A stretch of 59,990 nucleotides of DNA, the filler included, from Basidiobolus ranarum (taxonomy: Eukaryota), in assembly GCA_040143965.1 (NCBI GenBank). It is 9 parts of 9 records of this genome, joined end to end, with 100 filler letters (N's around TTAATTAATTAA, not from the genome) between each part and the next. Parts side by side here need not be neighbours in the genome. Positions count along the whole stretch, not along the records: positions 46,788 to 53,340 come from JASJQH010001296.1; 8 more parts are not named here. One strand, 5' to 3'. This document shows, in pieces, positions 24,571 to 59,990 of this stretch. The first letter of the stretch is position 1. The number at the start of each line of letters is the position of its first letter. The notes under the pieces are model-generated. The model searched no databases. It was given only the letters and a program-made list of their open reading frames with translations, and was not told the origin of the DNA. A program made the translations under genes and the position numbers.

Positions 24571-24599
24571 GTGGATAGTGGATTACATTATTAACCAAA

Positions 24600-35356: not shown

Positions 35357-35481
35357 ATGTACTATCTTGATATTTAAACTACGATAGATAGAATTACTAA
35401 AGCAATGACTTTAACCCAGTCTAAATAATCTATATATACTAAAAAAGTTGTAAGTAGATAAATATATTCCAATATCTACCC

Positions 35482-36120: not shown

Positions 36121-36471
36121 TGATAAAAGTGTTTAGGGGATTTGGAAGTATTTTGGACAAGGGTTGGATTTGTGAATTAGACACTTAAGTTTTATTAAAT
36201 TGAATATGTCCTATTTGTATTTTACTATGAAATAGGACTATTAGACATGCTTAGATCATAACAAACATGCCCATTAAGCATGGGGAAAATTTGAGGTGAT
36301 TTGGATGAAATTTGAGAAAATAGTGAAAATTGGTAAAAGTGATCTAATTGATATTTCTATCAATTAAAGCAATAAACACATGTTTTTGAATGACAGAATT
36401 GGGTGCTACATAATCAGAATATTAATAAACAAACTGCTAAATAATGAGTTGCTATTTACCTAATTTCAACA
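36121..36471 (-). mobile_element. Solo LTR, copia family B, TSD GATCT
   Basis: TG...CA ends, with GATCT at 36116-36120 and 36472-36476. Excision restores SGSNFDLMGYSDA. Confidence 0.93.
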
Positions 36472-37239
36472 GATCTGATGGGTTATTCAGATGCAAATTG
36501 GGAAAGAGACATTGGTGACAGAAGATCCACAACAAAATACTTATTTCTTTGCTGCAATGGAGCTATTTCTTAGGATTCCAAGAATAAGCCTACCATAGAA
36601 CTTTCAACAACAGAAGCAGAATACATGGCTGCCTGGGAAGCGACAAAAGAAACAATATGGTTAAGAAAATTCCTACCAGATTTAGGCTTTTCTCAAAATT
36701 TACCAACTACAATATTTCAACACAATCAAGGTTGTATCCAATTAGCCTAAAATCCCATGTTTCATAATCAAAGCAAACATGTAGATATTAGACATTGTTT
36801 CATTAGAGAGGTGATAGAAAATAAGTATAATTATCTAACTATTACATTAGAGAGGTCATGATTGCTGATAGAATAACTAATCCATGAGCTAGATGGAAAT
36901 TTGAGAAATTTAGACCTTTACTGGGGTTAGTTTATATGACTATTTAGTTGGGGGAGACTGTTGAAATTGGCCTTGCCTAAGCACCTATATAGTCACATAT
37001 AGCTTAGTACTTAGTTATTTTATAATACACTATGATATAATTCATTATTCTCAATCAGAACTTTCTTGGAATATTTTTACAAACTCAGAAGTTCTCAGAT
37101 ATATAGAGTAGCCCCAAACTTTGCATACATGTTTTGGGGACCTTCCTTAACACATTCTACATGTATTCACATCTCAACAAAACTATTGATGACAACTTTT
37201 AAGTCATTTAATAAGTGAAAATTGCCAATTAATCTGATT

Positions 37240-38254
37240 CTACAAAACATGAACACATGTGTTTTCAAAGAAACCTTGACTTTTGAAATTCTGGTAGTGA
37301 TATCCATCAAGCATATTAGTAATACCATCAGCTTTATGGTGAGTACTTTGGTACTGGATCAATGATGTATATATGGGTGATTTCATTAAAACTTCAAGAC
37401 AGGGAATCAATGGTATGTATGCCAAAATGAACAATATTTAACTGATTCAGTGATTGCCAATGGTGTGCAAAAGTATATAACTTCAGGTTTTTCAGATCAC
37501 CAGTGAAAGCCAAACATCCATTTGGATACAAAGGTAGTTTAATCACTAAAGGATTATAAGTCATATGATTGACAAGTATTTTCCACTTGTACCAGGTCTG
37601 TGGCAAGCAACAGTTGCCAATCAACTGTGGTAAAAGTGTAAGAAAACCAATAAACACTTGCTTGATAAGATTAGCTTGAACTCTCCACTCCTCAATAATC
37701 AAAGCTGCTTCCTTTAATGTCAGTGTTATGAGTGAACTAATGCTTGCAAATCACAAAGAGTCCATTACAAGACTGTCATTGTCTTGTTCGACTTTTGATA
37801 TTCTACCATCAGAAGCAGAATAACTAAGTTGAACACCTAGCTGCATATCCTTAAAGTTGTCTGGATTGACTGGTATAATCAAAGTTGCATTTCCACCTAC
37901 ATTATGCTGGGCATATAACTATGGTAACTCCATAGTACCTGACTTTCAGCAGTGTTATCAAAACTTTGCGGTAAAGCACAGCCAGTGGACTTGGTGGGCA
38001 CAACTAAAGTCAATTTTAGGCACTTATTACTATTTACATTCACCAGGCTTTGTACAGTGACCATGCTTGTGATAATTTTCTCTATGGAGTCTCTGGCTTT
38101 CATAGCACAAGAATTTGTGACTATAATAGTAGGGCTTCTTTAAACATTTGTATTTTGACTTTATAAGGATAATGTAGAAAAAAGAACACTTCCTATGTAA
38201 GGGTTGTATTTCAGGCATATCACAACAATATCATCAGCCAATTCTGCGACAGGG
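37240..38254 (-). mobile_element. Decayed N-terminal part of a CACTA/CMC-like (Tnp2) transposase
   Basis: PLYPNGCLAFTGDL and YIPLIPCL...YQ...NMLDGYHY resemble the C.N.C..F.G, YIPL.PRL and D..DG..Y motifs of fungal Tnp2 transposases. Confidence 0.65.
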
Positions 38255-38514
38255 TCACAGATGAGACATCAGGGGATTTACAAGTTTTTCTGGTAGTGTA
38301 TGGTAATTATGGTGTATTGTGAGCTGTTTCAAAACCACTTCATTAAACTAAGTTTACCAACTGAAAATTTCAATGCCATTCCAAAATTTTTCAAAATCAA
38401 GTCAAAATTGGCTTTGAAGCAAAAGCCTGCTGGCACAAAAGGAAAAAAAACCTGCTAGAGCACATGACTTGATTGATGAGCAATCAGGCAGCCAATTAAC
38501 CCCTTTGGAAGGCA

Positions 38515-40021
38515 TTAACATGCTGGAAACTAACTCAGGTAATGACAAATTGTTAATCAGTTTACCAGATGTGTGCCTTTCCAGCCATAGTGCAAACTAA
38601 GAGATTATAATCCCCTAATTATGTAGTAAGTCAGTAGTTGAGCAAAGTTCAACAGAAACACCATCAAGACCATCAGTTTCCAAAATGCCTACTTTGCCAA
38701 CTATGGTAAACCCCTCTGTAGACAATTTAAAAAGAAATATTACAACATGGGGATATCAGGGAGGGCACCATAATGCTTTGTGGGCTATCATAAGTAAAAA
38801 CTATAAAGTTGCCATACAGGCCATAACAAGCAATAATGCCACAAAACAGCAACTAATGCCATGTTCTGAAGGAACTGGTCATCAGTTTGAGAGTCACTCA
38901 ACAATGCTAAAAGACCTTCAGAATGCTTTATTTGAGCAAGAGCAACATGATGCTATCTCCATTTATTCACATATGGTATTCCAATCTATCCCACATCATA
39001 CATACAACTGTCACTATGACAATCTAGCAGAGCAAAATATGAGTAGGAACATTAAGCCTACACAACAACCCAAAATTGCTGTGTCATGTGAAATCTCACA
39101 GAAAAACTAGCAAACCCAAAGACTCTAAATGACAGAGTTACCGTCACTTGCTCTAAAAATGAATGGTTTAACACTTTGGAAACTGTGTGGAGTTATGGAA
39201 AAACCAAAACAGAGGAATTAATTGATGAGCTGTATAGCATTCTACATCCACTTTAGAAGGCATTGACATGCCAGGAACTAACTCAAGTAACAATGAAGCA
39301 ATAATCAATCACCAGATGTGTTCCTCTCTAGCAATAGTGCAGGTGAAGAGATTACAATCCCACAATTATATAGTAAATAAAACGTTGAGCAAAGTTCAAA
39401 AGAAACACTATCAGGACCATCAACTTCCAAAATGACAACTTTGCCAACTATTATTCACCCCTCTGTAGACAAGTTGGATAGAATCATTACAATATAGAAA
39501 TCTTAGTCACAACACCATTGTCATTTGTATGCAATCACAATTAAAAACAACAAAGTTGCTACACAAATCATGAGAAGTAGTAACACTGCAACACTTCAAT
39601 TACTGCAGCATTCTGAAATGACTCGTTAACATTTATAGACTCACTCAAATACAATATAAAACCTACAGAATGCTACATGTGAGCTATAGTAACATGTTGT
39701 TCTTTCTGTTCATTCCCACATGGGATTAAATTCTATCCCACTCCATTTATACTAATATCACTATTACAATATATCAGAGTGGAATCAGTGTTTGACCATT
39801 AGGCCTATGTAACAACCTGAAATTGCTTAGGCATACAAGAGTAGAAATCTTGTAGGAAAACTAGCATACCCACAGACTCTGAATGTTAGAGCTGATGTAA
39901 CTTGCTCTGCTTATAAATGGCTTAACATCTTGGAAACTGTGTAGAATGTTGCCACAATCACCTCAATTTAAGCCAATTATGGAAAAACCAAAAACCAGGC
40001 ATTACTCTGAAGGTTCTTGAC
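38515..40021 (+). repeat. Two diverged ~750-bp tandem units of an unclassified repeat
   Basis: ACATGC..GAACTAACTCA starts near 38519 and 39266. A third copy lies at 23700-24570 (-). Confidence 0.75.
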
Positions 40022-40121
40022 NNNNNNNNNNNNNNNNNNNNNNNNNNNNNNNNNNNNNNNNNNNNTTAATTAATTAANNNNNNNNNNNNNNNNNNNNNNN
40101 NNNNNNNNNNNNNNNNNNNNN

Positions 40122-42831
40122 GCCATGGTAAGTTGATTCTTTGAATTCTAAGCAATAGCTCTATTGCAGCCAAGAAATAAATATCCTGTTGAAGATCTCC
40201 TGGCTTCAATTTTTCTTCCCCTATTTTATCTGAATATCCCATTGGATCAAAGTTTGATCAAAAATATGTATATTTAAAGCACAGATCCACACAACCTTTC
40301 AAATATCTGAAAATCCACTTAACTGCTACAGTACAATCCAATCTGTGATTTTGAAGATATTGGCACCTAACTCCTACAGAATATGCAATATCTGGCTGTG
40401 TTCCAACCAAAATATATTCTACACTACCAACTATAGATTGATAAGGAAATTTCTGGCTTCCATTTGAATCCAAGAACATTGGATATGAGCTACATTTAGT
40501 CAAGTTAAGAGCTACCTCCATTGGGATATACATTGTATCACATTCTTTCATTTTAAATTTTTCAAGTATATCTAGGATATACTTAAACTGGTTCAAAGTT
40601 ATTGTTTTGGTATTTCTATATGTCTCAATTTGAATTCCAAGATAGTACATCTGTTTGCCAATATCAGTTATTTGGAATTCAACAGATAAGCTGGATTTGG
40701 TTTTCTCCAAAGTCTGCAAGTCATTGATTACTGTAATAAGGTCATCTACATATAAGTCTATTAAAACTTAGCTTGTCTTATCTGGCCTTGAGTATATACT
40801 ATAATTAGTATCACTCTTTCGGAATTTGAGTGTTTCCAAAAAAGCATCTATCTTGCTATTCCAAGCTCTTGCAGATTGTTTTAACCCTTAGAGCATTTTC
40901 CAGAGTCCGCAAGCTTTTTCAGGGCTTGCTGGGTCCACAAATCTATCTAGCCAGCTCATATAGATCTCCTCAGCAAGCTCATCACTCCAAAAGCAGCTTT
41001 AGCATCTATTTGATATATAATAATATGATATTTAGCTGAAATTGCTAAAATCAATTTAAATGAATTAAACTTAGCTATAGGAGTAAGAGTTTTTGTATTG
41101 TCAACTCCTATTATTTGCAAATAGCTTGTTGCTACTAGTCCAGTCTTGTAGCTCTCTATACTGCCATCAGTGTTGCATTTAACTTTAAACATCCATTGGC
41201 AGCCAATTAATTTTTTATCATTTGGTGAGTTGATTCAAATCCAAGTATGATGATCAATCCAAGCCTGGTGCTCATCAGCCATTCCAGATCTCAAAGATTT
41301 CATATGAGGGACATTTGTGGTCTCTTTTACAATCTGTGGTCATGTATTGGAGCTGTGCAGGCATGGGACCAATTTTCAGACTCAGTGATATCATCATCAG
41401 AGCTATATCTGATCCAATTTGTTCTCCTGATTTGGGATAAAGGAACTACAAACTCAAGCATTGTATTGGGCACTTCAATAAGCAGAATTTAGGGTGAATG
41501 GTCCACAGGAATGCCATTTTCTGCACTATTCTGGTTTGAACTATTTTGAATGATTGGTTTAGGAGATAGTAGAATTTTATCATTTTCTGAGGTCATTTTG
41601 GGTGAATATTTTTCCCTTTCATCAAACAATACATCCCTGAACATGGTTGACTTTGTAATATTGGTATCAGAGAGTCTGTAGACCTTATCTTGAGGAAAAT
41701 AACCCATAAATATTCATTTTGTATTCTTTGATAGGTATTCAGATCAATTGTTGATAATATTTTTGATGTAAGCAATGAATCAAAAGATCCTCAAATGTTT
41801 TACTTTAGATTTAACTCCAAACCATGCTTGATATGGTGTAGAGCTAGCCAGACTTCTACCAAACCTGCTATGATTAGATATATAGCTGTAGCAACAGGTT
41901 CTACTCAAAAAGTATGATATATATTTTGTGCATTTATCATATATCTAGCCATTTGTGTTATAGTCATGTTGGATTGTTCAGCAACTCCATTTTGTTGATG
42001 TGAATAAAAGCCAGTAGCACTTGATTAATTTCATGAACTTTGCAAAAGTTATTGAATAGTGTTGTAGTATATTCTCCTCTATTATCAATACATATTTACT
42101 TGATTCTAGTTCCAGTTTCAGTCTCCACAAGTGTTTTGAAATCTCAAAAGATATAGAGAGCTTCTTCTTTTCTTTCCATCAAGTGGATCTAAGTGCATCT
42201 TGTATAATCATCAACAAATGCAATTAAATATCTTTTTTCCAATAAAAATAAATCTTGCATAGGTCTTTACAAATCTGAGTGAATTAGATCTAACTTTTGG
42301 ACAGATTTGTTTAAACCAGAGCTCTTGAATGGTTGCCTGACTTCTTTTCCAAATATATAACCCCCACAAATTTCCATTTTGATTGGGGGGGTTAATTTAA
42401 ATTGTAGAAATTAGGCAATTTTTGATCATTTGGCTCCAACAACCAACCTAATATGGTCACATTCCATATGCCATAAATATTAGTTTCTTGATTGTAATAA
42501 ATTATGTTTACACATAAGCCTCATGGATTCCATGTAAGTTAGTAGAAGTTCTAATCCTTTTCTTCAAACACAAAACACCCCCTATTTTGATCAATGATGG
42601 TGCATCCTGGCTTATGAAAGTTAATTTATAGCCCTTCTGAGATGGCCTTGCATAGAGATATTGAATTCTTGGCAATATCTGGAACATGTAGTAAATCCTT
42701 CTAAGTATACACTTTCTCTTCAGTAGCACCAGTTGAAATAACTTTAATTGTTGCTATTCCAATGGCATCCAATGTGTGATCTCCAATGAAAACCTTTCTA
42801 ATTGGGATTTCTTCATAATCCACAAACCAAT
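40122..42831 (-). mobile_element. Decayed copia family A pol (protease-integrase-RT-RNase H start)
   Basis: LIHSDL, QQNGVAEQSN, FMGYFPQDKVYRL, FKVKCNTDGSIESYK and YVDDL in copia domain order. Confidence 0.9.
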
Positions 42832-43477
42832 CCCTGACAGAAATTTGAGGATTGTTTTTGTAAGAAAACCATCACAATTTTAATCTATTTTGGATTGACC
42901 ATTTACCAACCATCATAAAACCATCTAGTTAGATTTGTTTTGCTCAATTTTTCAGTTTCAGGATTGTAATTTCAAGATCTTACCAAGTAGTTGCATATGA
43001 TTGGCTACAATTTCAGAAAACTATGGATCAACACATGTGCAAACAATATAACTCAAATTTTAAACATTACCACTTGAATGCTAATTTGTTACCTTTGAAA
43101 TCCCTGCTTACTTCAATATATTCTCCTGAGTTTTTTTACAGAGTTCTTCAAACCCAAAGTTTTGGCTCATATCCAATATGTGTTTGTATCAATATCTCCA
43201 TCAAAGCCCATCATTGTATTAACATTGCTAAATCAACATTCTTCCAGCTATCTGGTGGATACCCTGCAATATTGTGCCATCCTGTATTAAGTTCTTCCCC
43301 GATATCTGCACAGTCAATACTAGACTGAATTTCAAGTTGAATGTTCTTCTTCTGAAGCAGCTTTTTTCATACTTGCACTTTATTTTGCTCTTCATAATTT
43401 TAAAAATCCTCCAATTTATTTTTGCATTGTTTGAGCATAATAAGAAAAACACTTTTGCTATTTTTATACATCCTGAT
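42832..43477. repeat. Unclassified element end (CCCTGACAGAAATTTGAGG...) abutting truncated copia
   Basis: Homologous to 26354-26668. It breaks the copia sequence exactly at AACCAAT|CCC. Confidence 0.7.
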
Positions 43478-43915
43478 TGTTGAGTTTCTAGGAGTCTGTT
43501 GGAAGTGGTTTGGAGATTAGAAAAAAATGGTGGTTTGCACTTATTGATTTATTGAGTAGAAAGTTGACATGTGTAATTTTATCAAGATGTAAGCAAACAA
43601 AGGTGTAGAATATGCTAAGGAAGGTACCAGGAGCATGTGCACAAAGTTTGCGGCCTCTAGCACAAGACTAAAAAATCTATATATCTCAGAACTTCTAAGT
43701 TTATAAAAATATTCTAAATATTTTTCAATTGAGAATAATGAATAATTTCTTGGTGAAATATAAGATAACTCAATACTAAGCTATATATGATGATATAGAT
43801 ATTAAGGCAATGCTAATTTCAACACTCTCCATCAACTGAATGGTAACATAAACTAATTGTAAGGAAAGTCTAAATTTCTCAAATTTCTGTCCAGCTAATG
43901 GTTTGGTTAATATAT
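43478..43915 (-). mobile_element. Copia family A 3' LTR (43478-43824) with PPT and RNase H end
   Basis: On the minus strand GATGGAGAG|TGTTGAAATTAGC. The upstream sequence matches the RNase H end at 36870-36950. Confidence 0.85.
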
Positions 43916-46687
43916 TTGAAATTGGCATTGTAAACTTGTGCTAGAAGCCCCACACTTTGCACACATGCCCCTGGGACCTTCCTTAACACATTCTGCACTT
44001 TAGTTTGTTTACAGCTTGACAAAACTATCAATGTCAACTTCCTCCTCAATAAATCAAAAAGTGAAAACCACCAATTTCTCTAATTCACCAAACCACTTCC
44101 AACAGGCTCCCAAGTACTTTAACAGGTTGTGGGCCCCAAGCTTGTACTCTCTGTATTGTCTACTTCTCTGATTTGTGAAACTTTTCCCACTTCTGATAAA
44201 TTGGATGGAACCAATTATCAAGTTTGGAAAATCAAAATGAAAATGCTGCTGCAAGAAAAAGAACTTTGGGACACTGTTGTAAGAGAAGAAAACAATGGAA
44301 AACTATCCAAAACCAAAGCTTTACTGCAGGTTAAAAAAGAACAAAGTGCCTTCATACAGTTTGTCTTAATGTTGAAGACAAATTTCTAATTCAATGTTCA
44401 CAAGCAAAGACTGCCAAGAAGGTATGGAAAGCCTTGGAAGACACCTACCAAATAAGTCCTGCTGCCAGCAAGATGTTTCTCAGAAGACAATTCTTTAATT
44501 TAAAGATGAAACCAGGAGAAGACATTAGATTGCTAATTATTAGAGTCACTAATTTAGTGGATGAAATGGAATGCATTGGAGTACCTGCTACTGATCATGA
44601 TATCATAGTTACAGTCTTCAATAGCCTGCCACACAAGTTTCTAAGCCTAGTAATGCCACTAGGAACAAGAACTGATAGTTTGACCTTAGATTATGTATTT
44701 GGCAGACTTTGGGATGAAGATTTATTCAAATTAGGATCCAACCAAATAAGGAGGAGTATACTTTAATAGGCTATCGGAAACCTTCCAATAAAGGTCAAAA
44801 TCAAGTTAAGTAGAAAAGTAATACATTCTGTGATTGCTGTAAAAGAACTGGCTATTTAAGCAAAGATTGCTATACAAGATTTGCAAAAGAAGAAAACATA
44901 CTGAATCTGGAAATGCAGCTTCAACAAAAAAACACTGGATCATATTTGCTCTTTCTATGATTACCAACTAGGATACTTGGATGTGATATATTGATTCTGG
45001 AGCCTCCAAACATTCCACAAATGAAAAACATTGGTTTGTGGATTATGAAGAAATCCCAATGAGACAGGTTCTCATGAGGAATGAGCAATGGGAGATGACT
45101 GCACATTGGATGCTATTGGAATGGGAACAATTCAAGTTAAAATAACTGGAGCTTTTGAAAAGAAAGTGTATACTTTCAAGGATGTACTACATGTTCCAGA
45201 AATTGCCAATAACTTAATATCTCTATGCAAGGCCATCTCAGAAAGGCTAAAATTCAATTTTGATAAGTCAGGATGCATCATCATTGATCAAAATGGGAAC
45301 TATTTATCTTTGGGACAAAAGGATCAAAGCTTATAAAAACATACATATAATCCAAGAGGTTATGAGCAAATATAAGTTATTTCAATCAAGAAACTATTCA
45401 TTTGTGGCATAAGAGATTTGGCCATATTGGATTTGATTATTTGAGCAAAATCATCAAAAATTACCTAATTTCAGGAATTCAAATTAACCTCTCAACTGCA
45501 ATAGAAATATGTGAGGGTTATATATATGAAAAACAAGCCAGGAAACTGTTCAAGAGCTATGGTCTAATCAAATCTGTCAAAAAAATAGATCTAATTCATT
45601 CAGATTTGTGTGGACCTATGAATAATTTTTTTTGGGTGGAAAACTATATTTCATCACATTTATTGATGATTATACAAGTTACACTTGGGTCTACTCTAAG
45701 GAAAGAAAAGAACAAGCACTCTCTATCTTTAGAGATTTAAATAGAAAATCAATTGGCTGCTAATGAGTGTTAGAAGTTAAATTCGACTCTGATGGCTGAT
45801 CACAAAGGTACAAGGATAGACTAGTAGCCAAAGGCTATTTCTAAACACCAGAAGTAACTTATACAAAAGCTTTTGCACCTGTAGCAAAGTTTTTTCCATC
45901 AAATTGATATTAGTAATTTGAGCTAAATATCAATTCATTACACATCAATAGATGTTAAAGCTGCTTTTTTAAGTAGTGAGCTTGCCAAGGAGATCTATAT
46001 GGACCAGCCAGATGGATATTTGGACCCAGAAAACCCTAAAACAGTTTGCAGACTCTGTGAAACACTTTAAGGGTTAAAACAATCTTCAAGAGTTTGAAAT
46101 AGCAAGATATATGCTTTTTTGAAAACAATCAAATTCCAAAAGAGTGATACTAACTATAGTATCTACTTCATGCCAGATAAGACAAACCTGGTTTTATTAG
46201 CCTTATATGTGGATGACCTCATTGTAGCAACCAATGACTTGAAGACTTTGGAGAAAACCAAATCCGGCTTATTTGCCAGATTCAAAATGACTGATCTTGG
46301 TGAACTGAAGTACTATCTTGAATTCCAAATTAAGATCAATAGAACTACCAAAACAATAACTTTAAGCCAGTCCAAGTGTATCCTAGATGTACTAAAGAAG
46401 TTTAAAATGGAAGAATGTAATCTAGTATCTACTCAAATGGAGACAAACCTCAACTTGACCAAAAATAGCTTAAATTATAGGCTCTTGGATTCAAATGAAA
46501 GCCAGATATTTCTGTATCAATTTATGGTTGCTAGTTTGATTTACATCATGGCTGGAACATGGTTAGAATATTACATATTCTGTTGGAGTTTTGTACCAAT
46601 TCTTCAAAATTATGGATCTGATCAAATCTTAGCAGTTAAGCAGATTTTCAGATATTTGAAAGGTCCTGCAGATCTGTTGTTGAAATA
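43916..46687 (+). mobile_element. Copia family A: deleted 5' LTR (to 44124), PBS GGTTGTGGGCCC (44125-44136), decayed gag-pol with internal deletion
   Basis: Gag KLDGTNYQVWKIKM, Zn knuckle C..C...G, protease IDSGAS, GAG-pre WHKRFGH, integrase IHSDLCGP and RT LYVDDLIV. Confidence 0.92.
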
Positions 46688-46787
46688 NNNNNNNNNNNNN
46701 NNNNNNNNNNNNNNNNNNNNNNNNNNNNNNNTTAATTAATTAANNNNNNNNNNNNNNNNNNNNNNNNNNNNNNNNNNNNNNNNNNNN

Positions 46788-46957
46788 ATTTATCATAGAT
46801 CTTGCCATTTCTATTATAGTCCTGTTAGCTCTTTCAGCAACTCCATTTTGTTGAGATGAATAGGGGGCAGTAGTTTATTGCTTAATTCCTTGAACTTTGC
46901 AAAAGTGCTTAAATAGTGTTGAAGTATATTCTCCACCATTATCAGTACGTATTTTCT
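46788..46957 (-). mobile_element. Copia integrase fragment
   Basis: Reads KKIRTDNGGEYTS..FKHFC..QGI...TAPYSSQQNGVAERANRTIIEMARSMI. Confidence 0.9.
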
Positions 46958-47138
46958 TCCTCCTCCTCCTTTCTTCTTCTTGTTTCTTCCTCCATTTTTT
47001 TTTTATCATCATATATATATTATTATTACGCAATTATCCATTACACCAATCCTCTCGCTATTTATCCTTCTTTATAACCCTTTTCCCAATTTCTTTCCCC
47101 AAACCATTTCATTTTTCATTCCCTTTTCTTTTTTTCCT

Positions 47139-49715
47139 CTACAACCATACGCTTTCGCACAGTATTTTTAGCTTTATATCATGTTCGTTGGACACTGACC
47201 ATAGAAAATCATTCCCTCTTGGAATTTCTGGATAATCTGTTTGAATATGTTGCCTTTTTATTATGTATTTATCCTTTATATAATTTTTTTTGTATATTTC
47301 ATACAAATTTTTATAATCTCTTCTAACAACATATGTACATACGGATCCTTTTTTCATATCGCTGTTTATTATTAAATCTTTTTTATTTGCCAGCTCTTCT
47401 ATTCTTTCGTCTTTTCCCCCAAACGTTTTACATAAAATATAACCAGAACATAAAATTTGTACAAATGTACTTTTTCTAAAAACATCATCTCCTATGTACA
47501 TATTTTTTATGTCATGACATTTTAGCGATTTATATATAGTTTCATACGTAACTCCCGCACAATTTACTAAAATATTTGACAATTCTTGTACGTACTCATA
47601 TTCTTTTCTTTTTGTACATATTTCTAATGCCAACAATCCTATATTTGTCATATATGCCTGGTCAAATTTTTCGTAATTTTTATGTCGGATATCTCCTCCC
47701 AACCACGTAATTAATGTTTGCATTGCTGCTTTATATTTTTCATCTAAAATATTATATACAAATGTAGACCTACAATTTATTTGTTTTATATATAATATCC
47801 ATTCTGCTCTTTTTTTTCTTGCACTTGGGTAATACAACTCTAAAAATAATGCTAAAAAACATCTAATTTCATTTGACATAGAACCATTTTTATATGTATT
47901 ATATACTATATCACACATTTTTTGCGATTCGCTGAATTCAACTATCATTTGAATTCTTTTTATAAAATCATTTGTAAACACCGACGATTTTATGTGATTC
48001 TGAAAAGTTTCCGTGAATTTTTGACGATCCCCATTTTTTATACATCTTTGACATACATAAAATAATTTTACTTCTTCATCAAATGGATTATCTTGTAAAT
48101 CCTTTTCTTCCGTAATATACATCATATATTTATCATAAATATTTCGCCTCGTTGTTAAAAGTTCTGATAATTGGTTTATTAATTCATCTTTACGAATTGT
48201 TTTCTTTTCGTTGTATCCATACTCGCAATATTCTAAATTTAAATCTTTAGAATAAAGTTCGGCTTCATCTATATTTAAATTGTTAATAAATAATTCAAAT
48301 ATAAATAATTCTGGGTTTGTTATATATCCATATTCTTCTTCTAGTTTCAACAACCATTCCCCAAGACCATTTATATTATTTTTCCATATATACCATGTGG
48401 ATATTTTCTGTACGAAATCATCTTTTTCTTCGGAATTTAAAAATATTTCTTCCAATTGGTCAACATCATCTTCATATTTCAAAAAATAGATTATATCCAA
48501 TGCCTCTCTTGATTTTTCATATCCTTTCTCCAACGATTTTATAAACATATTTTCGGCGTCATCATAATTTTCTTCTATGATATATTTTTTCCCCATATAA
48601 TATTCATATGACCCATTACTACTAATTTTGAATTTGGATATAAAATTTTCATAAATTGTCTTTTTAACGATGTCTGCACTAGATCCAATTAATTTGTGTC
48701 TAATTAAGGCATCAAATGCATCTTTATGTCCCTGAGAAGCTGCTCGTTCAAACCAATCCATTCCCATTTTGTAATCATCGAATATTTTTGTTTTTCCCAT
48801 TCTGTACTGACATTCCATATTTCCGTCTGTTGCTGGTATTAAAATGTATTCGTGAATTAAATATAAATTTTCCGAATACGATATCACGTCAAAATTTCTA
48901 ATTTGTTCATCAGCAAAATTGGTGCTTTCCAAAAATTTAATTAATTTATTAATACTAGGGCGCATTTCTGCTTTGGGATTTATGCATAATTTAATAATAT
49001 CACAAAAAAATGTTGGGACATAAATTGGATAAGTTAATTTATATTGCTCTGATGTTATATACTCTCTGATATGAACATTTGAATCTGTTTCGTAAAATGG
49101 TGCAAATCCATTTGTTACCAATTCATATAACAGCATTCCGAGGCTATAAATATCAGATTCTTCTGTTGGTTTATTTAACGGGTTTTTTATTCTTTCTGGT
49201 GACGTCCAACGAAGTGTGTTGCCATATACCATTTTATCTGTCGAATCTAAAGATACACTAAGACCAAGATCGGATATCTTAGGTATCATTTGATCTGTTA
49301 TAAGAATATTTTCGGCTTTTATATCTGAATGGACTAATTTTTTGTTGTGCAAAATCTCTACACCTTTGCATATATTTTTTGCAATAATTCTTTTTCCTTC
49401 CCATCCAATAATATTTCCTTTTGTATTTATAAAATCTAATAAATCTCCCCCTGAAATATATTCCATAACTATATTAATTTCGTTTGCATCTTTGTAAACC
49501 CCATACATGTTTACAATATAACCCTGATTCCAAAATTCCATAAGATTTTTTATTTCTTTTTCAACTAATATAGACATATTAGTGGTTGATTCCCTTTTTA
49601 TCTGTTTAATTGCAACGTTTCTCCCATCCATTGTTCCTTTCCATACGATTCCAAATCCTCCCGATTTAATAATATATTCTTTAACGATACTATTTGAATT
49701 AATTTTTGTATTCAT
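47139..49715 (-). CDS. TKL-type protein kinase (non-RD) with Sel1-like repeats and a long helical C-terminus, 858 aa
   Basis: SGGFGIVWKG, VAIK, alphaC EKE, HSDIKAEN, DLG, RWTSPE and SDIYSLG motifs. Sel1-like segments CQYRMG...WFERAASQGH and YYMGKKY...FIKSLEKGY. Confidence 0.9.
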   Translation of the reverse strand: MNTKINSNSIVKEYIIKSGGFGIVWKGTMDGRNVAIKQIKRESTTNMSILVEKEIKNLMEFWNQGYIVNMYGVYKDANEINIVMEYISGGDLLDFINTKGNIIGWEGKRIIAKNICKGVEILHNKKLVHSDIKAENILITDQMIPKISDLGLSVSLDSTDKMVYGNTLRWTSPERIKNPLNKPTEESDIYSLGMLLYELVTNGFAPFYETDSNVHIREYITSEQYKLTYPIYVPTFFCDIIKLCINPKAEMRPSINKLIKFLESTNFADEQIRNFDVISYSENLYLIHEYILIPATDGNMECQYRMGKTKIFDDYKMGMDWFERAASQGHKDAFDALIRHKLIGSSADIVKKTIYENFISKFKISSNGSYEYYMGKKYIIEENYDDAENMFIKSLEKGYEKSREALDIIYFLKYEDDVDQLEEIFLNSEEKDDFVQKISTWYIWKNNINGLGEWLLKLEEEYGYITNPELFIFELFINNLNIDEAELYSKDLNLEYCEYGYNEKKTIRKDELINQLSELLTTRRNIYDKYMMYITEEKDLQDNPFDEEVKLFYVCQRCIKNGDRQKFTETFQNHIKSSVFTNDFIKRIQMIVEFSESQKMCDIVYNTYKNGSMSNEIRCFLALFLELYYPSARKKRAEWILYIKQINCRSTFVYNILDEKYKAAMQTLITWLGGDIRHKNYEKFDQAYMTNIGLLALEICTKRKEYEYVQELSNILVNCAGVTYETIYKSLKCHDIKNMYIGDDVFRKSTFVQILCSGYILCKTFGGKDERIEELANKKDLIINSDMKKGSVCTYVVRRDYKNLYEIYKKNYIKDKYIIKRQHIQTDYPEIPRGNDFLWSVSNEHDIKLKILCESVWL

Positions 49716-49743
49716 GTTGTTATATTAACTTAACGGTATTATT

Positions 49744-51057
49744 ATGGATATTGCACAAAAAATTTTCGATATTGCTTTACAAATTCGTGATGCTTATTCC
49801 AAAATGGAAGATGTACGCAAAGAATGTAAATTATTTGTGGAAAATGTAAATCATATAGACTTTGTTATTGGGCGAATAAAAGATGATGCAAATTTGCGTA
49901 ATTATACAACAGAAGAGTTGTATACAGTTGAATCGGAAATGGGAAGAGGACTTACTGCAATTACAACATACATGGGTTATTCTAAAGCGATACAAGTACT
50001 AAAAGCAAATGCATTAGAAAAGACATTAGCGGATATTAACAGAAACGTAGAAAGGGGTTTACTGTTAATACATATGCATGCTACCGCGTCAATAGTTCCA
50101 AGCATCAAGTCTTTTATGGAAGAATGTCAACGCAATATGCAATTATATATTTACAAAAGTAAAAAACTTGCCATTGGAGCTATTCAGAATAAAAAAGGGA
50201 AGCATGTTCAAGTACAACTTAACGCAACCAATTTTACGTTTAAAAAATCTTTGAAAAATCCAGAAACAGGAGAAGAAATAGCACAGGAGGGATTGTTTAT
50301 GGAATACGAAGAAGTTAGGGTAATCGAAGTAAAAGGAATTTCCGGCAATCAATCATCTTCGGCACTAACAGAAGAAGAGATATTTTATAAAGAGTTGGCC
50401 ATTAATAATATACTCAGAAGTCCTAGAACATTGGCATATTATGGTGCATTTTGTGAAAACAATAAAACATTTATGGTTGTTGAAAAATTTGGAAATAAAA
50501 CGCTATCCGATTTATTAACAGATGGTTCTTGTAATGTAGATGGTAAAATCAAATATCAAATTGCACTAGATATATGTAAAGGAATACATTATCTACACAA
50601 AATAGATATTATTCACAGATATTTGTCTAGTCACGTTATTTTAGTTGGTGAAAATTACCGCATAAAAATTTCAGATTTCCATAGGAGCAAATTTTCGGAC
50701 AAAACTAGTAGTATGGGAAGACCAATATCAAATTTAGAAACGGAAAGGTGGGAACCACCAGAATATTTTGATTTACAAAAGGAAAATAAAAAAGGGGGAG
50801 ATATATATTCACTCGGACTTATATTAAGAGAACTGGCTACGGGTTTAAAACCATTTGATACAGTAAGCGATGATGAAAATATAATTAAAATAATATCAGA
50901 AAGCGATGATATACTAAAATTAAATCCTATTCCAGATAGTATTAATAAAGATATTACAAATCTGATTGTCAAATGTTTATCTATAAATCCCGATGACAGA
51001 CCGTTTTCAGGTAGGGTTATACAAATATTAGAAAATATGGATATAAAAGAGTTTTAA
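49744..51057 (+). CDS. MLKL-like protein: N-terminal four-helix-bundle-like domain, brace and pseudokinase, 437 aa
   Basis: Amphipathic N-terminus MDIAQKIFDIALQIRDAYSKMEDVRKECKLFVENV. The kinase fold lacks the Gly loop and beta3 Lys (VRVIEV), and has HRD->HRY (aa 291-293) and DFG->DFH (aa 311-313). Confidence 0.8.
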   Translation: MDIAQKIFDIALQIRDAYSKMEDVRKECKLFVENVNHIDFVIGRIKDDANLRNYTTEELYTVESEMGRGLTAITTYMGYSKAIQVLKANALEKTLADINRNVERGLLLIHMHATASIVPSIKSFMEECQRNMQLYIYKSKKLAIGAIQNKKGKHVQVQLNATNFTFKKSLKNPETGEEIAQEGLFMEYEEVRVIEVKGISGNQSSSALTEEEIFYKELAINNILRSPRTLAYYGAFCENNKTFMVVEKFGNKTLSDLLTDGSCNVDGKIKYQIALDICKGIHYLHKIDIIHRYLSSHVILVGENYRIKISDFHRSKFSDKTSSMGRPISNLETERWEPPEYFDLQKENKKGGDIYSLGLILRELATGLKPFDTVSDDENIIKIISESDDILKLNPIPDSINKDITNLIVKCLSINPDDRPFSGRVIQILENMDIKEF

Positions 51058-52046
51058 ATATATTTCTTTTTTTACCAAGTACAAAAATATACAATCTGGT
51101 AATTTTAATACCAAATTATATGATACGTAATGACATCGATTAATAATTTTAACTATTGCATTATAATTATATTATATATTGTGAATTGTTTTTTAAAAAT
51201 GCATTTGTACATATATATAAATATATTTAAATCATAATTTTCAGACCATTAAATATGTTACAGATAAATTAAAAATACGTTTAATTTAATTATGGAATAT
51301 GTACCGTAATATTACAAAATATTTGTTATAATATATTTTTGTTACGTAAAATAATTTAAGAATATTATTTATTTTCGTACATTTTACCAATGCTTATTTT
51401 ATTTATATTGTCTGATTAAATATATAATTACCTAAAACAAAATATTTTTTGGGAATTTTATATAAAACTAATTAAATATGAAACATTGTTTTATACAATA
51501 GACTTTAAATTATGATCGGCATTATTAATATATGATCCACTAGATAAAACACAAAATTGGTTTAAATGTGTTAATATGTAATAAATAACAATATCATTTA
51601 GTAATATGATATATTTATATATAGTATACAAAAACCATACGGTAAAATTTATACCAATAAATATATAACATAAAAAATAAATTTAATTATTCATCTTAAT
51701 ATTGTCATAACATATGATTATATAAAAAATTTTTGATTAAATATTTTTTGTATATAATAATAAATAATTTAATAGTTTTATATATACAAAAAATAACCAT
51801 CTGCAGTTTGCATAATAAAATAAATATCATGTTAAATTTTAATTATCTATACGTAATTGTACAAATAAATTTATAATTAAAATCTAGATAATTATTACAA
51901 TATATACCAAAAAGTTTATGCAAATTAGAATTTATAAACCAAAAATATTATTTTTGAAAAACATAATGTATGTACAATTTAGCAAATCCCATTTTTAAAA
52001 TTTAAAATTGCGATTGTATGGCCATTTATACACACAAAAATGTATA
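51058..52046. other. ~1-kb extremely AT-rich non-coding spacer between convergent genes
   Basis: Almost entirely A/T, with no credible ORF. Confidence 0.7.
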
Positions 52047-53340
52047 TTATGACGATGAGTTATATTCTCTAAGTCTGAATTCTGATTTGAGGGAAAGTAA
52101 TGCAGTTGACGTAGGTACCAAAGATCTTTTAATAAGGGAACATAATATATAAGCCTTCTGTTCAATAGCCATTTGTTTATAAGTTTCAACGGAAACAAGT
52201 CCGGGTCCTTCGAGCTTAAAAGTTTCATAATATATATTATGCAATTGGGCAGGAGAAATCTTGCCATGCTTAATTTTATTTATTGTAGTTTCGTTGAAAA
52301 TAACCTTATCTCTATCAGAGTTAACTCCTTTGAATCTCATGATAATAGGAGTTTCTTCACCAGTAGATTTATTTATGGTGTATATACAATAACATTTTGG
52401 GGCAATGGATATACAGTATGGATCTTCATGCCCTTCGGGTACTTCGTCTAAAACTTCTTCTCTAAGCTGACCACATTCTTCTCCAAATAGCTCGGAAAAA
52501 TTTTTGCGTAACTGTTTATATTCGGTTAAGCTCATAACTAACGAATCCGTATCCGTTAAAATTTTTGTTTGAACTTGAGAAAGTAAAGATATATACATAT
52601 CTCTTCTTGCATAAGCATAAATTAATATACCCCATATTGTGGGAACCATTACTTTTGGATGAGCAATCTTACCTATGGCTATATCAGTTCCGCAGTATGA
52701 AAACCAATAATCCGAATCTTTGACAACAGCTCTGAAAAAATTTTCCTTTTGTTTGTTGCTTTGAATAATTTCTTTTCTAATAGTATGAGGACGTTGGATA
52801 AATTTGCCGGATAAACTATTCATGGCTAATTTTAAACATTCACGCAAAGACGGATTATATCTATGATCTTTTGTAGTTTTCCATTTATCTTGCTGTTGCT
52901 TGGCATTTACGATAGGTAAGATAAAACTCGTGAAAATATTATTTCTACTATTATCCCAAATATATCCTTCATGAACAATTATGTCGCAATTTGTAGCCTC
53001 CAATAGTTCGATGTCAACATTAGTAATCCATCTGTTCATTGGTCCATCATACTTCCAATTCAAAGAATCCCCTGCGTTATCTCTAACATTGGGAATAATT
53101 ATTGGATCTACAGTTTGACCATTAATGGTAACGTTATAAACCCCTATTTTTCCTTTGCGGTATGTCTTAGTTTTTTTAGGCATACCTATTGGAAACTTAT
53201 GTTTCATCATCACATATGGATATAAAGATATTACGTCAACCATTGCTACCGGTTTGTCGTATATTCCTCCATGAAAAATTTCTGATCTGCCTCCTATTGT
53301 ACTTTGTCGAATTGCCGAATCTTGTTCGGGATTTAAAATT
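52047..53340 (-). CDS. Protein-primed family B DNA polymerase, polymerase domain (5'-partial)
   Basis: The frame is open to the contig end: IRQSTIGGRSE (GGR motif), motif A DVISLYP, motif B KLAMNSLSGKF, PTIWGILIYAYAR, motif C TDTDS, APKCY and FKGV. Confidence 0.9.
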
Positions 53341-53440
53341 NNNNNNNNNNNNNNNNNNNNNNNNNNNNNNNNNNNNNNNNNNNNTTAATTAATTAANNNN
53401 NNNNNNNNNNNNNNNNNNNNNNNNNNNNNNNNNNNNNNNN

Positions 53441-56758: not shown

Positions 56759-58877
56759 TCATGCACAAGTGACTAGTTTAACTTATAAGAAAGAGGTGGG
56801 AGGGGGATCTTGCAAGTAACAAAAACAAAAAAGTTCAATATTCTACGTTTCCTGCGTAGAAATTTTTTCGAATAACGGTCGCTTAAGCAGTAAAATAAAG
56901 CTGTCAACACTAATAGATAGATTACTGCTATGGTTGCGGTTGAAATTGAGAATATCAATTACAAGTTTAACCTCTTTTACAAAGAGTGAAAAGATTGTTG
57001 CAGTCAACACTATAATAAAGTACAAATCATAGTGGATAGGAGAGATTAAAGTCAGTATCTAATGAAAATTAGCGAGATTAAGAAAAGTTTTACTTACACT
57101 AAAGCTAACGTAGAGAAAATAAAAACTGACTGATAACAAGAAGATAAAGTCAGTTGGAAAGTAATTCGTAGATTAAGGAAAGTATCATTAAATTATTGAT
57201 TCCAATAGGGCTTCAACATTAATCACATTATTTACTGATTTGTACTTCGGGCTTAGGTATCTATCATTGCGGATTGGCCAGACTTGGGTTACTTTTAAAC
57301 TCCAAAATGTATATTTCCTTATTTTAAGGTATAAGGAGATATTTGAAACATGTTTGGAAATAGCGATGATTTAGACGGTTTAAAGGCCATAATTTGACGG
57401 AAAATAAGGCACTTTCATGAATACCCGACTCGGATCTTACAACATTCAATAAATGCTAAGTAACGTCCCATTGGTCATACAGTACTGGATAAGTTCCTAA
57501 GGCAGGTTATGAAAAGTTAAATTAGTGTAACTTGGAAATTTATTATCGTTTATGAAAGACCCAGCCTGGAGAATCGTCGATAATATTCATTTAGGGCCCG
57601 TTCACTCACCGAGTATTTTAAAGACCTAACCCTAGATTAGCATACACTCAACCAGCAATATTAGAAAAGCCGAGAAATTGAAAATTGCCATATTACATTA
57701 CTTCGCTTACCCAAGCCTGAAACAATCATCCTGTACATCCCTGTTCTATCCCAGCCATGATACTCTTCAGACAAAATAGCAAGAGATGCAGCCAACCTAC
57801 ACAAACCCCACACAGAACCGAATTGAGGCAGCATCCGATCAAGTTTGATCACAGCACGATGGCTGCTTAATGTCACTGATGTAGCAATGAAGACTAATGC
57901 CTCTCCATAAAGGAAGATTTTCTAGCTAGAAGAATGAGATACACATTGAAGTGCTCTATAGAACAAATCCAACATGAATCCTTCGTGCTACAATACCGAC
58001 CTGATACGGAACGCATTTTAGAAGTGGCATTGTGGGGAAATGATCTAGTGGAGCTCGCAATAAACATACCCCTTGCATACAATAGAATTTTTAAAATGAT
58101 TCTTGTATCTTTGATGGAAGCAGAATCCTAGCTGTAGTTCTAGCCTTAAAGTACAATGCACGAAACAAGCTCGAGGATCCTCTCATCCCTGAATCGAAAG
58201 GTCGCAATTGATAAAGCAGTGGATCAAAGAGGTTTGTGTATATTTCAACAGATAAGTTTCAAGTTTCTTCAATATAATTCGACCAACCAATATTTCTCAC
58301 CCAAAGGGAACAGAAACAAAATGAATTGGTTTTCCATCCACCAACATAGCTACTAGCTCGCCTATTTCCTCCTAGAATTTCTACGAATTACACCCAATGC
58401 ATTTCTGCCTCATTGGCGTTGCTTATGTAGTCTATTTGCATCCTGATCAATGTCAACGTTGATTTTCACTTGAACTGCAAATTTAATGCACTTTCAAACC
58501 AAATGTGTGTAGGTAATAGGTCTTAGAGGGAAGAAAAATGCGGGTAAAAAAACAAATACAATTGAATTATGTGACTTAACACAACCATGTTTCACAACAA
58601 TGTTCTAATTTCAGGGGAAGTGACAGGAGGTTGAAAGGAGTGAACGATTCAGGAGGAGTAAGAATATATTGAAAAATGTTAACTTGAAAATATTACCTAT
58701 TGTACGTAATTCTACCTAACCCAAACCAATTCATCATGTAAATATATCTCTATTCTATGCCCCTCTCTAGACTATAAAAGATCACTTGAATCGTTTCAAT
58801 TTCTACACAGTTCTTAAGAAACATTCAATTGAGTTTCTAATCTTTACTTCGCAATCTTTTAGCAACCTTAACATAAT

Positions 58878-59990
58878 ATGAAATTCTCCGCCCCCGCTCT
58901 TCTTTTCGTTATCTCTGCTGCTTGCTCTGTCAGCGCTGGTGTTGGCTCCTATGATACAACTGACCTTTCTGGAAGCCTAGGAGACAATGGTGGAGGAAAT
59001 GGTGGTGGTGCTGGAGGATATGGCTCTGGTAATGGCTCAGGCGGAAACGGTGGTGGCAATGGCGACGATAACGGTGGTGGAAACGGCGGTAACGGCGGTG
59101 GTGCTGGAGGATATGACTCTGGCAATGGATCTGGCGGTAACGGCGGTGGTTCCGGAGGCAATGGAGGAGGAAATGGTGGTAACGGTGGCGGTGCTGGAGG
59201 ATATGACTCTGGCAATGGATCTGGCGGTAACGGCGGTGGGTCTGGAGGCAATGGAGGAGGAAATGGTGGTAACGGCGGCGGTGCTGGAGGATATGACTCT
59301 GGCAATGGATCTGGTGGTAACGGAGGAGGCAATGGCGGTGATAATGGTGGTAACGGTGGTGGAAACGGAGGCAACGGCGGTGGTGCGGGAGCTTACGACA
59401 CCGGAAATGGTTCAGGCGGTAATGGAGGAGGAAATGGTGGTAACAATGGTGGGGTTGGAGCCTACGGTCCAGGAAGTGGTTCAGGTGGCAATGGAGGAGG
59501 AGGAAATGGTTCCGGTGGCAATGGAGGTGCTGGTGCTTATGATACTGGAAATGGTGCTGGTGGTAATGGAGGAGGTAATGGTGGTGGACCTGGTGGAAAT
59601 GGCGGAGGAAACGGTGGCAACGGCGGTGGTGCTGGAGGATATGACTCCGGAAATGGATCTGGTGGCAACGGAGGAGGCAATGGTGGTGATAATGGAGGCA
59701 ACGGTAGTGGAAATGGTGGTAATGGCGGAGGTGCTGGAGCTTATGACACCGGAAATGGCTCCGGTGGCAACGGAGGAGGAAACGGCGGTGATAATGGTGG
59801 TAATGGCGGTGGTGCTGGAGGATATGACTCTGGCAATGGCGCAGGTGGTAATGGTGGAGGCAATGGTGGCTTCGGTGGTGGTTCTGGAGCTTTTGTTTCT
59901 GGATTTGGTGCGGGTGGTCTTGGTTGTGGAAATGGTGGTGGTGCTGGTGGTAATGGTGGAGGAATTGGCGGCAACGGTGGAGGAGCTGGT
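58878..59990 (+). CDS. Secreted Gly/Asn-rich repetitive protein (3'-partial)
   Basis: ATG at 58878, signal peptide MKFSAPALLFVISAACSVSA, and repeats of GGNGGGAGGYDSGNGSGGNGGG. No stop before the window end. TATAAAA near 58773. Confidence 0.88.
   Translation, partial: MKFSAPALLFVISAACSVSAGVGSYDTTDLSGSLGDNGGGNGGGAGGYGSGNGSGGNGGGNGDDNGGGNGGNGGGAGGYDSGNGSGGNGGGSGGNGGGNGGNGGGAGGYDSGNGSGGNGGGSGGNGGGNGGNGGGAGGYDSGNGSGGNGGGNGGDNGGNGGGNGGNGGGAGAYDTGNGSGGNGGGNGGNNGGVGAYGPGSGSGGNGGGGNGSGGNGGAGAYDTGNGAGGNGGGNGGGPGGNGGGNGGNGGGAGGYDSGNGSGGNGGGNGGDNGGNGSGNGGNGGGAGAYDTGNGSGGNGGGNGGDNGGNGGGAGGYDSGNGAGGNGGGNGGFGGGSGAFVSGFGAGGLGCGNGGGAGGNGGGIGGNGGGAG

Follow-up and report, generated by a model that had tools for sequence, protein, structure and literature searches.

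This analysis concerned a 59,990-nucleotide (nt) stretch of Basidiobolus ranarum DNA (assembly GCA_040143965.1), referred to here as the window, and in particular a block on its eighth contig (JASJQH010001296.1) in which two kinase-like genes stand head to head beside part of a gene for a protein-primed family B DNA polymerase (pPolB). The window is an artificial string of size-sorted contigs from a fragmented assembly: eight linkers of the form N44-TTAATTAATTAA-N44, the central part of which stops all reading frames, lie at 6601-6700, 13297-13396, 19986-20085, 26669-26768, 33347-33446, 40022-40121, 46688-46787 and 53341-53440, and split it into nine pieces that fall steadily in size (6600, 6596, 6589, 6583, 6578, 6575, 6566, 6553 and 6550 bp). 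Because the contigs are joined by artificial linkers, neighbourhood across the gaps carries no meaning, and the finding is confined to contig 8 (46788-53340, 6553 bp), which has no physical link to anything outside it. A database entry identical to one of the encoded proteins, of 437 amino acids (aa), likewise corresponds to one contig of 6553 bp.

The three genes that the initial annotation had placed within one contig are all present on contig 8. An 858-aa kinase matching Pfam PK_Tyr_Ser-Thr is encoded at 47139-49715 on the minus strand, and the 437-aa protein, which matches the same family, at 49744-51057 on the plus strand; their two start codons diverge from a spacer of only 28 bp (49716-49743), which bears out the claimed divergent pair. 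On the far side of the 437-aa gene, 52047-53340 (minus strand) specifies the C-terminal 430 aa of a pPolB (Pfam DNA_pol_B_2) in a frame without a stop as far as the contig end, beyond which the 5' part of the gene lies; counted from the first ATG, the frame gives 398 aa (52047-53243, minus strand). The lengths of these open reading frames (ORFs) in DNA of 28% GC, together with the E-values given below, exclude a chance origin. The convergent 3' ends of the 437-aa and pPolB genes are separated by a gene-less spacer of 990 bp and 16.4% GC (51058-52046), in which the longest internal ORF with an ATG start reaches at most 41 aa, tRNA and Rfam scans were empty, and a repeat search found short, chance-level repeats only. 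Scans of the whole window for tRNAs and Rfam families also returned no matches, and no inverted repeats of note were found within contig 8.

At the left end of contig 8, positions 46788-46958 (minus strand) hold a decayed fragment of a Copia-type integrase core with one in-frame stop, identified by blastn and translation. This 171-bp scrap contains a single CpG site (observed/expected ratio, o/e, 0.21), is 81.9% identical to 41932-42101 of contig 7, and is the sole nucleotide match of contig 8 among the other eight contigs (blastn). It is followed at 46959-47138 by the junction and the 3' flank of the kinase gene, comprising a poly-pyrimidine (TCC/TTC) tract and then AT-rich DNA, where ORFs and repeats were looked for and none of note was found; a faint Copia similarity possibly extends to ~46995.

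The kinase and the pseudokinase

The kinase domain of the 858-aa protein (aa 15-262) is of the tyrosine kinase-like/tyrosine kinase (TKL/TK)-like kind, with Pfam E-values of 7.3e-49 for PK_Tyr_Ser-Thr and 7.4e-44 for Pkinase. In a 30-row alignment all catalytic residues were found to be kept (G19, K37, E55, H129, D131, K133, N136, D149, G151 and P173-E174), in agreement with the intact kinase of the initial annotation, and the enzyme is predicted to be active. Its closest sequence matches in the PDB were Src-family kinases, CSK and BTK. A word-index search with the whole protein returned matches to the kinase domain only, at 28-37% identity and covering at most 33% of the query, among them numerous PASTA kinases of bacteria and a single protein from Rhizophagus irregularis.

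Sel1-like repeats had also been claimed for this protein. Pfam Sel1 stays below its cut-off (E 0.0027-0.0071; 18.7 bits against 30.7), as does TPR_27 (E 0.00048; cut-off 27), but a phmmer search of the PDB matched about 110 aa (aa ~300-410; 48486-48818, minus strand) to proteins of the TPR/Sel1 type, the best being the TPR protein YrrB at 2.6e-5 (aa ~300-402), followed more weakly by the Sel1-type E. coli C5321 protein (0.013), a TPR repeat protein (0.027) and a SEL-1 repeat protein (0.75). Two TPR/Sel1-like repeats are discernible by eye in this stretch. The final ~450 aa of the kinase gave no match.

The kinase-like domain of the 437-aa protein (50221-51057, plus strand) matches PK_Tyr_Ser-Thr at 3.8e-30 but has lost much of its catalytic apparatus. 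The catalytic Asp, present in 29 of 29 aligned kinases, is replaced by Y293, the Lys (28 of 29) by S295, the Asn (29 of 29) by V298 and the Gly of the DFG motif (29 of 29) by H313. K197, E217 and D311 are kept, and the Gly-rich loop is degenerate. The loss of the catalytic Asp, Lys and Asn and of the DFG Gly identifies the protein as a pseudokinase. Its activation loop (aa 314-335) contains seven Ser or Thr among 22 residues. When modelled by AlphaFold2 (AF2) with a 30-row kinase alignment, the pseudokinase domain received predicted local distance difference test (pLDDT) values of mostly 77-97, falling to 55 at aa 321-330; a run of the 437-aa protein without an alignment gave a pLDDT of 34.

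By both sequence and fold, the pseudokinase domain is generic TKL/TK-like, with matches to CTR1, ITK, TNNI3K, ABL, RAF and similar kinases, and the viral proteins that it matched by fold were ordinary kinases of giant viruses and retroviruses. By sequence, the closest kinases came from oomycetes, a dictyostelid, Mortierellomycetes (Actinomortierella) and Rhizoctonia, with no lineage signal. An exhaustive protein search with the 437-aa protein gave 118,666 matches, and in all but one of the best 150 the best stretch began at residue 145 or later, the exception (P0205) starting from residue 94; the search was flooded by kinase domains and is therefore uninformative on relatives of the N-terminal domain. 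Among the 149 best representatives (P0150-P0298), 144 did not have exactly one kinase catalytic core, and most appeared to be multi-kinase proteins, such as P0150 with 10 kinase domains in 2911 aa. An earlier alignment (A3) was dropped because the additional kinase domains of multi-kinase rows had been misaligned onto the N-terminus of the 437-aa protein. Paralogues of the two kinase-pair proteins were not found in the other eight contigs.

The first 150 aa of the 437-aa protein (49744-50193, plus strand) form a helical domain that is a candidate bundle of the MLKL_N/MCAfunc/RPW8 type. In Pfam, aa 5-103 align collinearly with positions 2-102 of the 142 in the MLKL_N profile (E 0.029; 14.3 bits, cut-off 27). 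By the language-model features of Atlas, the whole 437-aa protein reached 0.99 both against three MLKL clusters of chordates, whose members carry MLKL_N in 98-100% of cases, and against a Basidiomycota cluster with MLKL_N in 23%. When aa 1-150 were used alone, the best family-bearing matches (0.80-0.89) were plant MCAfunc/MLKL_N/DUF7792/RPW8 clusters, except for one TNFAIP8 cluster (0.81), and the rows at 0.88-0.89 had 176-188 of 256 features in common. In an Atlas structure search, aa 1-150 matched the N-terminal part of a U-box protein from a plant with a template modelling (TM) score of 0.77, the aligned part being labelled MLKL_N 'under the bar', and both AF2 runs gave helices only across this region. 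The domain has no hydrophobic segment (top 19-residue Kyte-Doolittle mean 1.18), and Pfam HeLo, Helo_like_N and SesA were not matched even at E<=10.

Several of these results count against the assignment as well as for it. The MLKL_N match is below threshold and is outscored by FabMG, an unrelated family whose match is spurious; the Atlas part-scores are all below 0.9 and so are 'a lead only' by the tool's own rating; and the AF2 confidence of the N-terminus was low in both runs (pLDDT 28-69 with the alignment). A phmmer search of the PDB with aa 1-160 did not find MLKL, and no sequence relatives of the N-terminal domain were recovered. Taken together, the N-terminal ~150 aa are probably an MLKL-type bundle. 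Of the helical-bundle/pseudokinase gene described in the initial annotation, the pseudokinase and the helical N-terminus stand, whereas the evidence for a bundle specifically of MLKL type, though consistent, remains sub-threshold.

Base composition, codon usage and introns of the block

The AT-rich block of contig 8 has 27.9% GC (72% A+T) and a CpG o/e of 1.06 (130 CpGs), as against 33.5-40.7% GC and an o/e of 0.04-0.73 on the other eight contigs. Among the latter, CpG o/e is 0.59-0.73 on gene-bearing contigs compared with 0.06, 0.06 and 0.04 on the transposon-rich contigs 4, 6 and 7 (20086-26668, 33447-40021 and 40122-46687). The same difference is seen gene by gene, with values of 0.92-1.16 in the kinase, the 437-aa gene and pPolB, and 0.00-0.09 in transposon ORFs. 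The GC content of third codon positions (GC3) is 0.22, 0.21 and 0.26 in the three block genes and 0.29-0.48 in those ORFs of contigs 1-7 that are 130 aa or longer. The kinase and 437-aa genes correlate in codon usage at 0.96, and each of them with pPolB at 0.88, while the correlation of the block genes with the host is 0.30-0.38, a single host ORF having been compared. All three block genes are intronless. A J-domain gene on contig 9 contains two short introns, of ~100 and ~50 nt as judged by eye, which fit a fungal host.

Composition and codon usage so unlike those of the other contigs mean that the block either is foreign to the other assembled DNA or is far younger. The earlier description of it as AT-rich, intronless and CpG-keeping was therefore accurate. 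The contrast that had been drawn with decayed transposons elsewhere in the window is real as regards their low CpG content, but those transposons are not physically linked to the block, save for the 171-bp Copia scrap.

Some features of the other contigs may be recorded here. The near-complete CpG depletion of contigs 4, 6 and 7 fits prolonged, methylation-driven decay of repeats in the host. Stop-broken ORF fragments of Copia-type gag, integrase and reverse transcriptase lie on contig 7 at 44129-46739 (plus strand) and 41932-42101, and a similar gag ORF stands at the left end of contig 9 (53441-53916, minus strand), so that a single repeat family extends across several contigs. The J-domain gene (55334 to ~56800, minus strand) encodes a membrane protein with many hydrophobic stretches, its N-terminal J-domain split by the introns and its final ORF 379 aa long. 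Further along the same contig, at 58872-59990 (plus strand), GC rises to 55-57% over an ORF that is open to the contig end and begins with a signal-peptide-like sequence followed by Gly/Asn-rich GNGGG/AGGYDSGNGSG repeats; it probably encodes a secreted or cell-wall repeat protein.

The protein-primed polymerase and its relatives

The polymerase frame matches positions 202-418 of the 468 in the Pfam profile DNA_pol_B_2 (PF03175) at 7.7e-30, its 104.6 bits lying well above the cut-off of 25.8. When 16 sequences were aligned, the motif columns D35, S38, L39, Y40 and P41, K170, N174, S177, G178 and K179, T264, D265 and S266, and K315 were invariant or, as with L39, nearly so. Motifs A, B, C and KxY are present, and judged by its sequence the contig 8 polymerase is a genuine pPolB. 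The call made in the initial annotation is correct in this respect, including its intact palm motifs, but contig 8 holds only the C-terminal ~45% of the protein; the N-terminal ~55%, with the exonuclease and terminal-protein parts, is cut off by the contig end and falls past 53340. Relatives carry ~450-620 additional N-terminal residues.

Twenty-one relatives were recovered at E<=1e-3 among 5422 candidates. They are 853-1803 aa long, show 29-42% identity to the contig 8 protein (15 of the 21 were aligned), and lie for the most part on contigs of 3-8 kb. A wider set of 159 pPolB loci (1.48 Mb) was assembled from IMG/VR (79 loci; 146 of 306 pattern matches confirmed) and from metagenomes (80 loci; 317 of 591 confirmed). 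A C-terminal polymerase profile matched 177 ORFs or proteins, and the 110 spanning most of the profile were kept for a FastTree reconstruction, with an IQ-TREE quick reconstruction on 43 rows picked around the contig 8 pPolB.

In both trees the contig 8 pPolB fell within a 15-row clade of metagenome sequences (support 97 by FastTree and 98 by IQ-TREE quick), the sister of which was formed by P0143 and L122 (17 rows jointly, support 95 and 95). Next outward came virophage loci with Sputnik-type capsid genes (L001, L003, L083, L020 and L002). L122 carries a Pox_A32-type packaging ATPase (3.3e-8). With the L020 capsid (Pfam Sputnik_MCP_1st, 1.3e-36) as blastp query, a virophage-type capsid was found in 9 of the 159 loci and in no member of the 15-row clade, the members of which may be capsid-less. 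The trees and the gene context of the relatives together place the contig 8 polymerase in an uncharacterised branch beside the polymerases of virophages and Polinton-like viruses.

The sole long member of the clade is L082, which covers 12386 bp of a 17084-bp metagenome contig of 32% GC. Its genes comprise a pPolB (873 aa), an Rpb2-like RNA polymerase ORF (domain 6, 1e-31), a PD-(D/E)XK-like ORF, a small APH-like ORF of kinase fold, and two large ORFs without Pfam matches. A capsid was not detected in L082, which is an unclassified plasmid- or virus-like element. In relatives with context, the polymerase lies at a contig end and is directed inward, and by analogy the right terminus of the contig 8 element would lie ~1.5-2 kb past 53340.

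Two groups of known elements invite comparison. Polintons/Mavericks, Polinton-like viruses and virophages share with contig 8 a pPolB of family PF03175, and its clade lies beside the locus with the A32-type ATPase and then those with Sputnik-type capsids. Unlike them, the 6.4 kb seen here includes no capsid, penton, ATPase, protease or integrase. The second group is that of the yeast cytoplasmic elements, which are tightly packed and carry an Rpb2-like RNA polymerase; the killer element pGKL1 is ~9 kb in size and follows a selfish toxin/immunity logic, and genes of the pGKL type are preceded by the conserved sequence ATNTGA. The block resembles pGKL1/pGKL2-type elements in being AT-rich, intronless, compact at one gene junction, and in combining a pPolB with a few cargo genes in less than 10 kb, and its relative L082 joins such a polymerase to an Rpb2-like RNA polymerase. 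It differs in its 990-bp non-coding spacer, in the attached Copia scrap, and in a cargo of intracellular kinases rather than a secreted toxin; none of these elements was named among the 21 pPolB relatives. ATNTGA, whose background frequency is 0.31 per 100 nt, was found upstream of one of two gene starts in the block (at -52) and of none of seven in L082. Since the sequence is not enriched, the block was not filed as a pGKL-type element.

Origin and possible function of the block

From the genes, their motifs and arrangement, the foreign composition of the block, and the clade of its polymerase, we infer that contig 8 may be the end-fragment of a single foreign and recently arrived selfish element, belonging to the assemblage of Polintons, Polinton-like viruses, virophages and linear plasmids, and adjoining or sitting inside a decayed Copia retrotransposon in a host that is fungus-like and has introns. 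The cargo of this element would be a two-gene module transcribed head to head from the 28-bp spacer. One gene would supply an active TKL-type kinase, with the C-terminal TPR/Sel1-like repeats and a further helical region acting as sensor or dock, and the other a partner of MLKL architecture, in which an N-terminal helical bundle is joined to a catalytically dead kinase domain. Upon a trigger, the kinase would phosphorylate the Ser/Thr-rich activation loop of the pseudokinase, which might then free the N-terminal bundle to act on membranes and so lead to arrest or death of the cell. The benefit to the element could be abortive infection, exclusion or addiction. This reading, of a foreign pPolB element with a kinase/MLKL-like accessory module as a regulated switch for death or arrest, is the one tentatively preferred here, and is considered quite possible, though short of probable.

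In favour of a single element are the common foreign composition of the three genes and their lack of introns; on one side, the whole AT-rich block also borders directly on a host repeat. The 28-bp divergent spacer has a compactness like that of viruses or plasmids. The link between the kinase pair and the polymerase consists, however, of base composition and codon usage, and a number of observations speak against the proposal as a whole. The agreement in codon usage may mirror shared AT-richness alone, and the host is represented by one ORF. No kinase homologue was found at E<=1e-3 in any of the 159 related pPolB loci, and the 990-bp gene-less spacer could mark the boundary of an element; the claim that the kinases are cargo of a pPolB element was accordingly not sustained beyond the compositional link. 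Contig 8 contains no capsid, penton, ATPase, protease, integrase or terminal repeat, its sole integrase-like sequence being the Copia scrap, and its identification as a Polinton is not borne out; capsid-type genes could be held by the part of the element beyond the contig. The tie to the host is just 171 bp long and ends in a low-complexity junction, so that a misjoin is possible. As to the proteins, neither of the pair had a relative of more than 37% identity, with similarity limited to the kinase domain, and scans of IMG/VR with either were empty, although these reach near-identical peptides only. Neither MLKL nor RIPK turned up among the top 60 PDB sequence matches of either protein or at any of the 50 ranks that Foldseek listed for the model of the 437-aa protein, and an RHIM-like core ([IV]Q[IVLCF][GN]) does not occur anywhere in the 858 aa of the kinase. 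On its sequence, the pseudokinase domain gives no indication of descent from animal or plant MLKL, and the suggestion that the two proteins are RIPK3- and MLKL-like by descent is not supported by domains so generic.

If the Copia scrap is taken as the left terminus, the whole element would measure ~8-8.5 kb and consist of the polymerase and two cargo genes, which in scale and logic would suit a yeast killer plasmid and not a capsid-encoding virus. A still more specific proposal is that an element resident in a fungus-like host, being either a plasmid-like derivative without capsid or a Polinton-like virus or virophage, bears a self-contained necroptosis-type module, made up of a sensor kinase and a full-length executioner of MLKL architecture, and uses it in abortive infection against a competing or giant virus, to exclude superinfection, or for addiction or killing. 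That combination of claims is regarded as doubtful.

A somewhat unlikely alternative is that the contig brings together two unrelated neighbours. The pPolB would then be what is left of a degraded insertion, Polinton-like or virophage-like, whose tail ends in the AT-rich spacer, and the kinase pair would be of other origin, from a different foreign insertion (for example a giant-virus-derived fragment) or from an AT-rich host region, with the pseudokinase serving its neighbouring kinase as an ordinary signalling scaffold or regulator and not as a death effector. Such an arrangement is consistent with the 16% GC spacer that parts the pair from pPolB, with the absence of kinases from all 159 pPolB relatives, and with a codon usage that is tighter inside the pair than between it and pPolB. 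Both kinase domains being generic, with ordinary kinases as their viral structural matches and no lineage signal among the nearest sequences, is also what it would lead one to expect. One study describes a known host expansion of kinase plus Sel1-repeat proteins in Glomeromycotina, there termed 'MLKL-family' kinases (TCDB 1.A.105 'MLKL'; PMC8778642). The 858-aa protein resembles these in having a TKL-type kinase followed by Sel1-like repeats, and its second-best match was from Rhizophagus irregularis, but that match is of 31% identity over the kinase domain only, and bacterial kinases are as close (33-37%). Separate origins do not readily explain why the pair matches pPolB in AT-richness, intact CpG and lack of introns and differs from every other contig, and a 28-bp spacer between divergent starts is ill-suited to ordinary nuclear genes. 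The repeated pointing of the N-terminal domain to the MLKL_N/MCAfunc/RPW8 group also argues against an ordinary scaffold.

It is rather unlikely that the contig is a chimera, or that the block is non-nuclear or a contaminant, in which case the AT-rich 6.4 kb would derive from an extrachromosomal linear pPolB plasmid, a virus-like element, or a co-sampled organism or virus, and the Copia scrap would have been added by the assembler. The position of the junction in a low-complexity poly-pyrimidine tract and the shortness of the host-like part are in keeping with this, and a CpG o/e of ~1 beside host transposons at 0.04-0.06 fits DNA that was never under host CpG decay. An element of ~8-8.5 kb bounded by the scrap, with polymerase and cargo and no capsid genes, would suit an episome, as do the coupling of an Rpb2-like RNA polymerase to a pPolB without capsid in L082 and the location of most members of the polymerase clade on contigs of 3-8 kb. 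On the other side, ATNTGA is not enriched, and the 990-bp non-coding spacer is unlike the tight packing of yeast elements. Joins of unrelated sequences without a common repeat are atypical for assembler chimeras, and the Copia-like similarity seems to fade gradually into the poly-pyrimidine tract.

A counter-defence function appears improbable. Here the pseudokinase would mimic a host substrate or partner and soak up host immune kinases while the active kinase reprogrammed signalling, with no killing involved. Poxviruses and noroviruses are documented to have captured parts of MLKL that act in decoy or lysis roles (PMC10583209), and the retention of K197, E217 and D311 suggests that the pseudokinase may yet bind nucleotide or partners. 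The same source describes poxvirus decoys as lacking the N-terminal bundle (PMC10583209), as the initial annotation had stated, whereas the 437-aa protein keeps a helical N-terminus of 150 aa. No host homologue is known as a target of mimicry, with neither paralogues in the other eight contigs nor close relatives found. Two further candidates were rejected: a mitochondrial plasmid, which three frames open in the standard code with TAG/TAA stops neither require nor exclude, the RNA polymerase gene of the relative L082 being of the multisubunit and not of the phage type; and a giant-virus fragment, for which the viral fold matches were ordinary kinases without a specific relative. Use of a pPolB is not known from giant viruses.

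To return to the preferred reading of an element-borne death or arrest switch, its parts can be set beside known systems. As in animal MLKL and RIPK3, a ~150-aa N-terminal helical domain precedes a dead kinase domain with a Ser/Thr-rich activation loop, and an active kinase gene stands alongside. Orthology was nevertheless undetected, the pseudokinase has its own changes in the catalytic loop (HRY, DFH), the active kinase has TPR/Sel1-like repeats in place of an RHIM-like core, and MLKL and RIPK3 are dispersed host genes whereas the pair is adjacent and in foreign DNA. Plant MLKLs and MCAfunc/RPW8-type proteins came nearest to aa 1-150 by language-model features and Atlas structure search, and PMC12881547 records fungal proteins in which a HeLo-like domain is joined to a kinase or pseudokinase domain, so that the architecture of the 437-aa protein alone is not new. 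Unlike the present pair, plant MLKLs and fungal HELL-kinase proteins are host immune genes and not cargo beside a pPolB. Viral derivatives resemble contig 8 in placing MLKL-type parts on a selfish genetic element; poxviruses have the kinase-like part only, as a RIPK3 decoy, and noroviruses the bundle-like part only (NS3), for lysis (PMC10583209). Contig 8 has both halves in one protein and a neighbouring active kinase, and the carrier would be a pPolB element and not a poxvirus or RNA virus.

Searches of open-access text and preprints gave no description of a pPolB element that bears a kinase together with a bundle-plus-pseudokinase gene, in line with the novelty claimed for the combination, but the bundle-kinase architecture by itself was already recorded for fungi. 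The observation is real and the layout unusual; it is novel as a combination and weakly supported as a system, the base being one fragmentary 6.5-kb contig without relatives.

MLKL-type helical-bundle executioners are host immune genes in animals, plants and fungi. If the more specific proposal of a necroptosis-type module is true, contig 8 would provide the first case of a mobile element that encodes a full death effector, bundle and pseudokinase combined, together with its own activating kinase. A mobile pPolB element with both halves in one protein beside an active kinase would show selfish DNA to be able to carry a complete, regulated cell-death switch between genomes. The pair would also offer a compact two-gene system for studying how death switches are triggered, and would bear on the idea that integrated virophage-like elements guard host populations via the sacrifice of infected cells.

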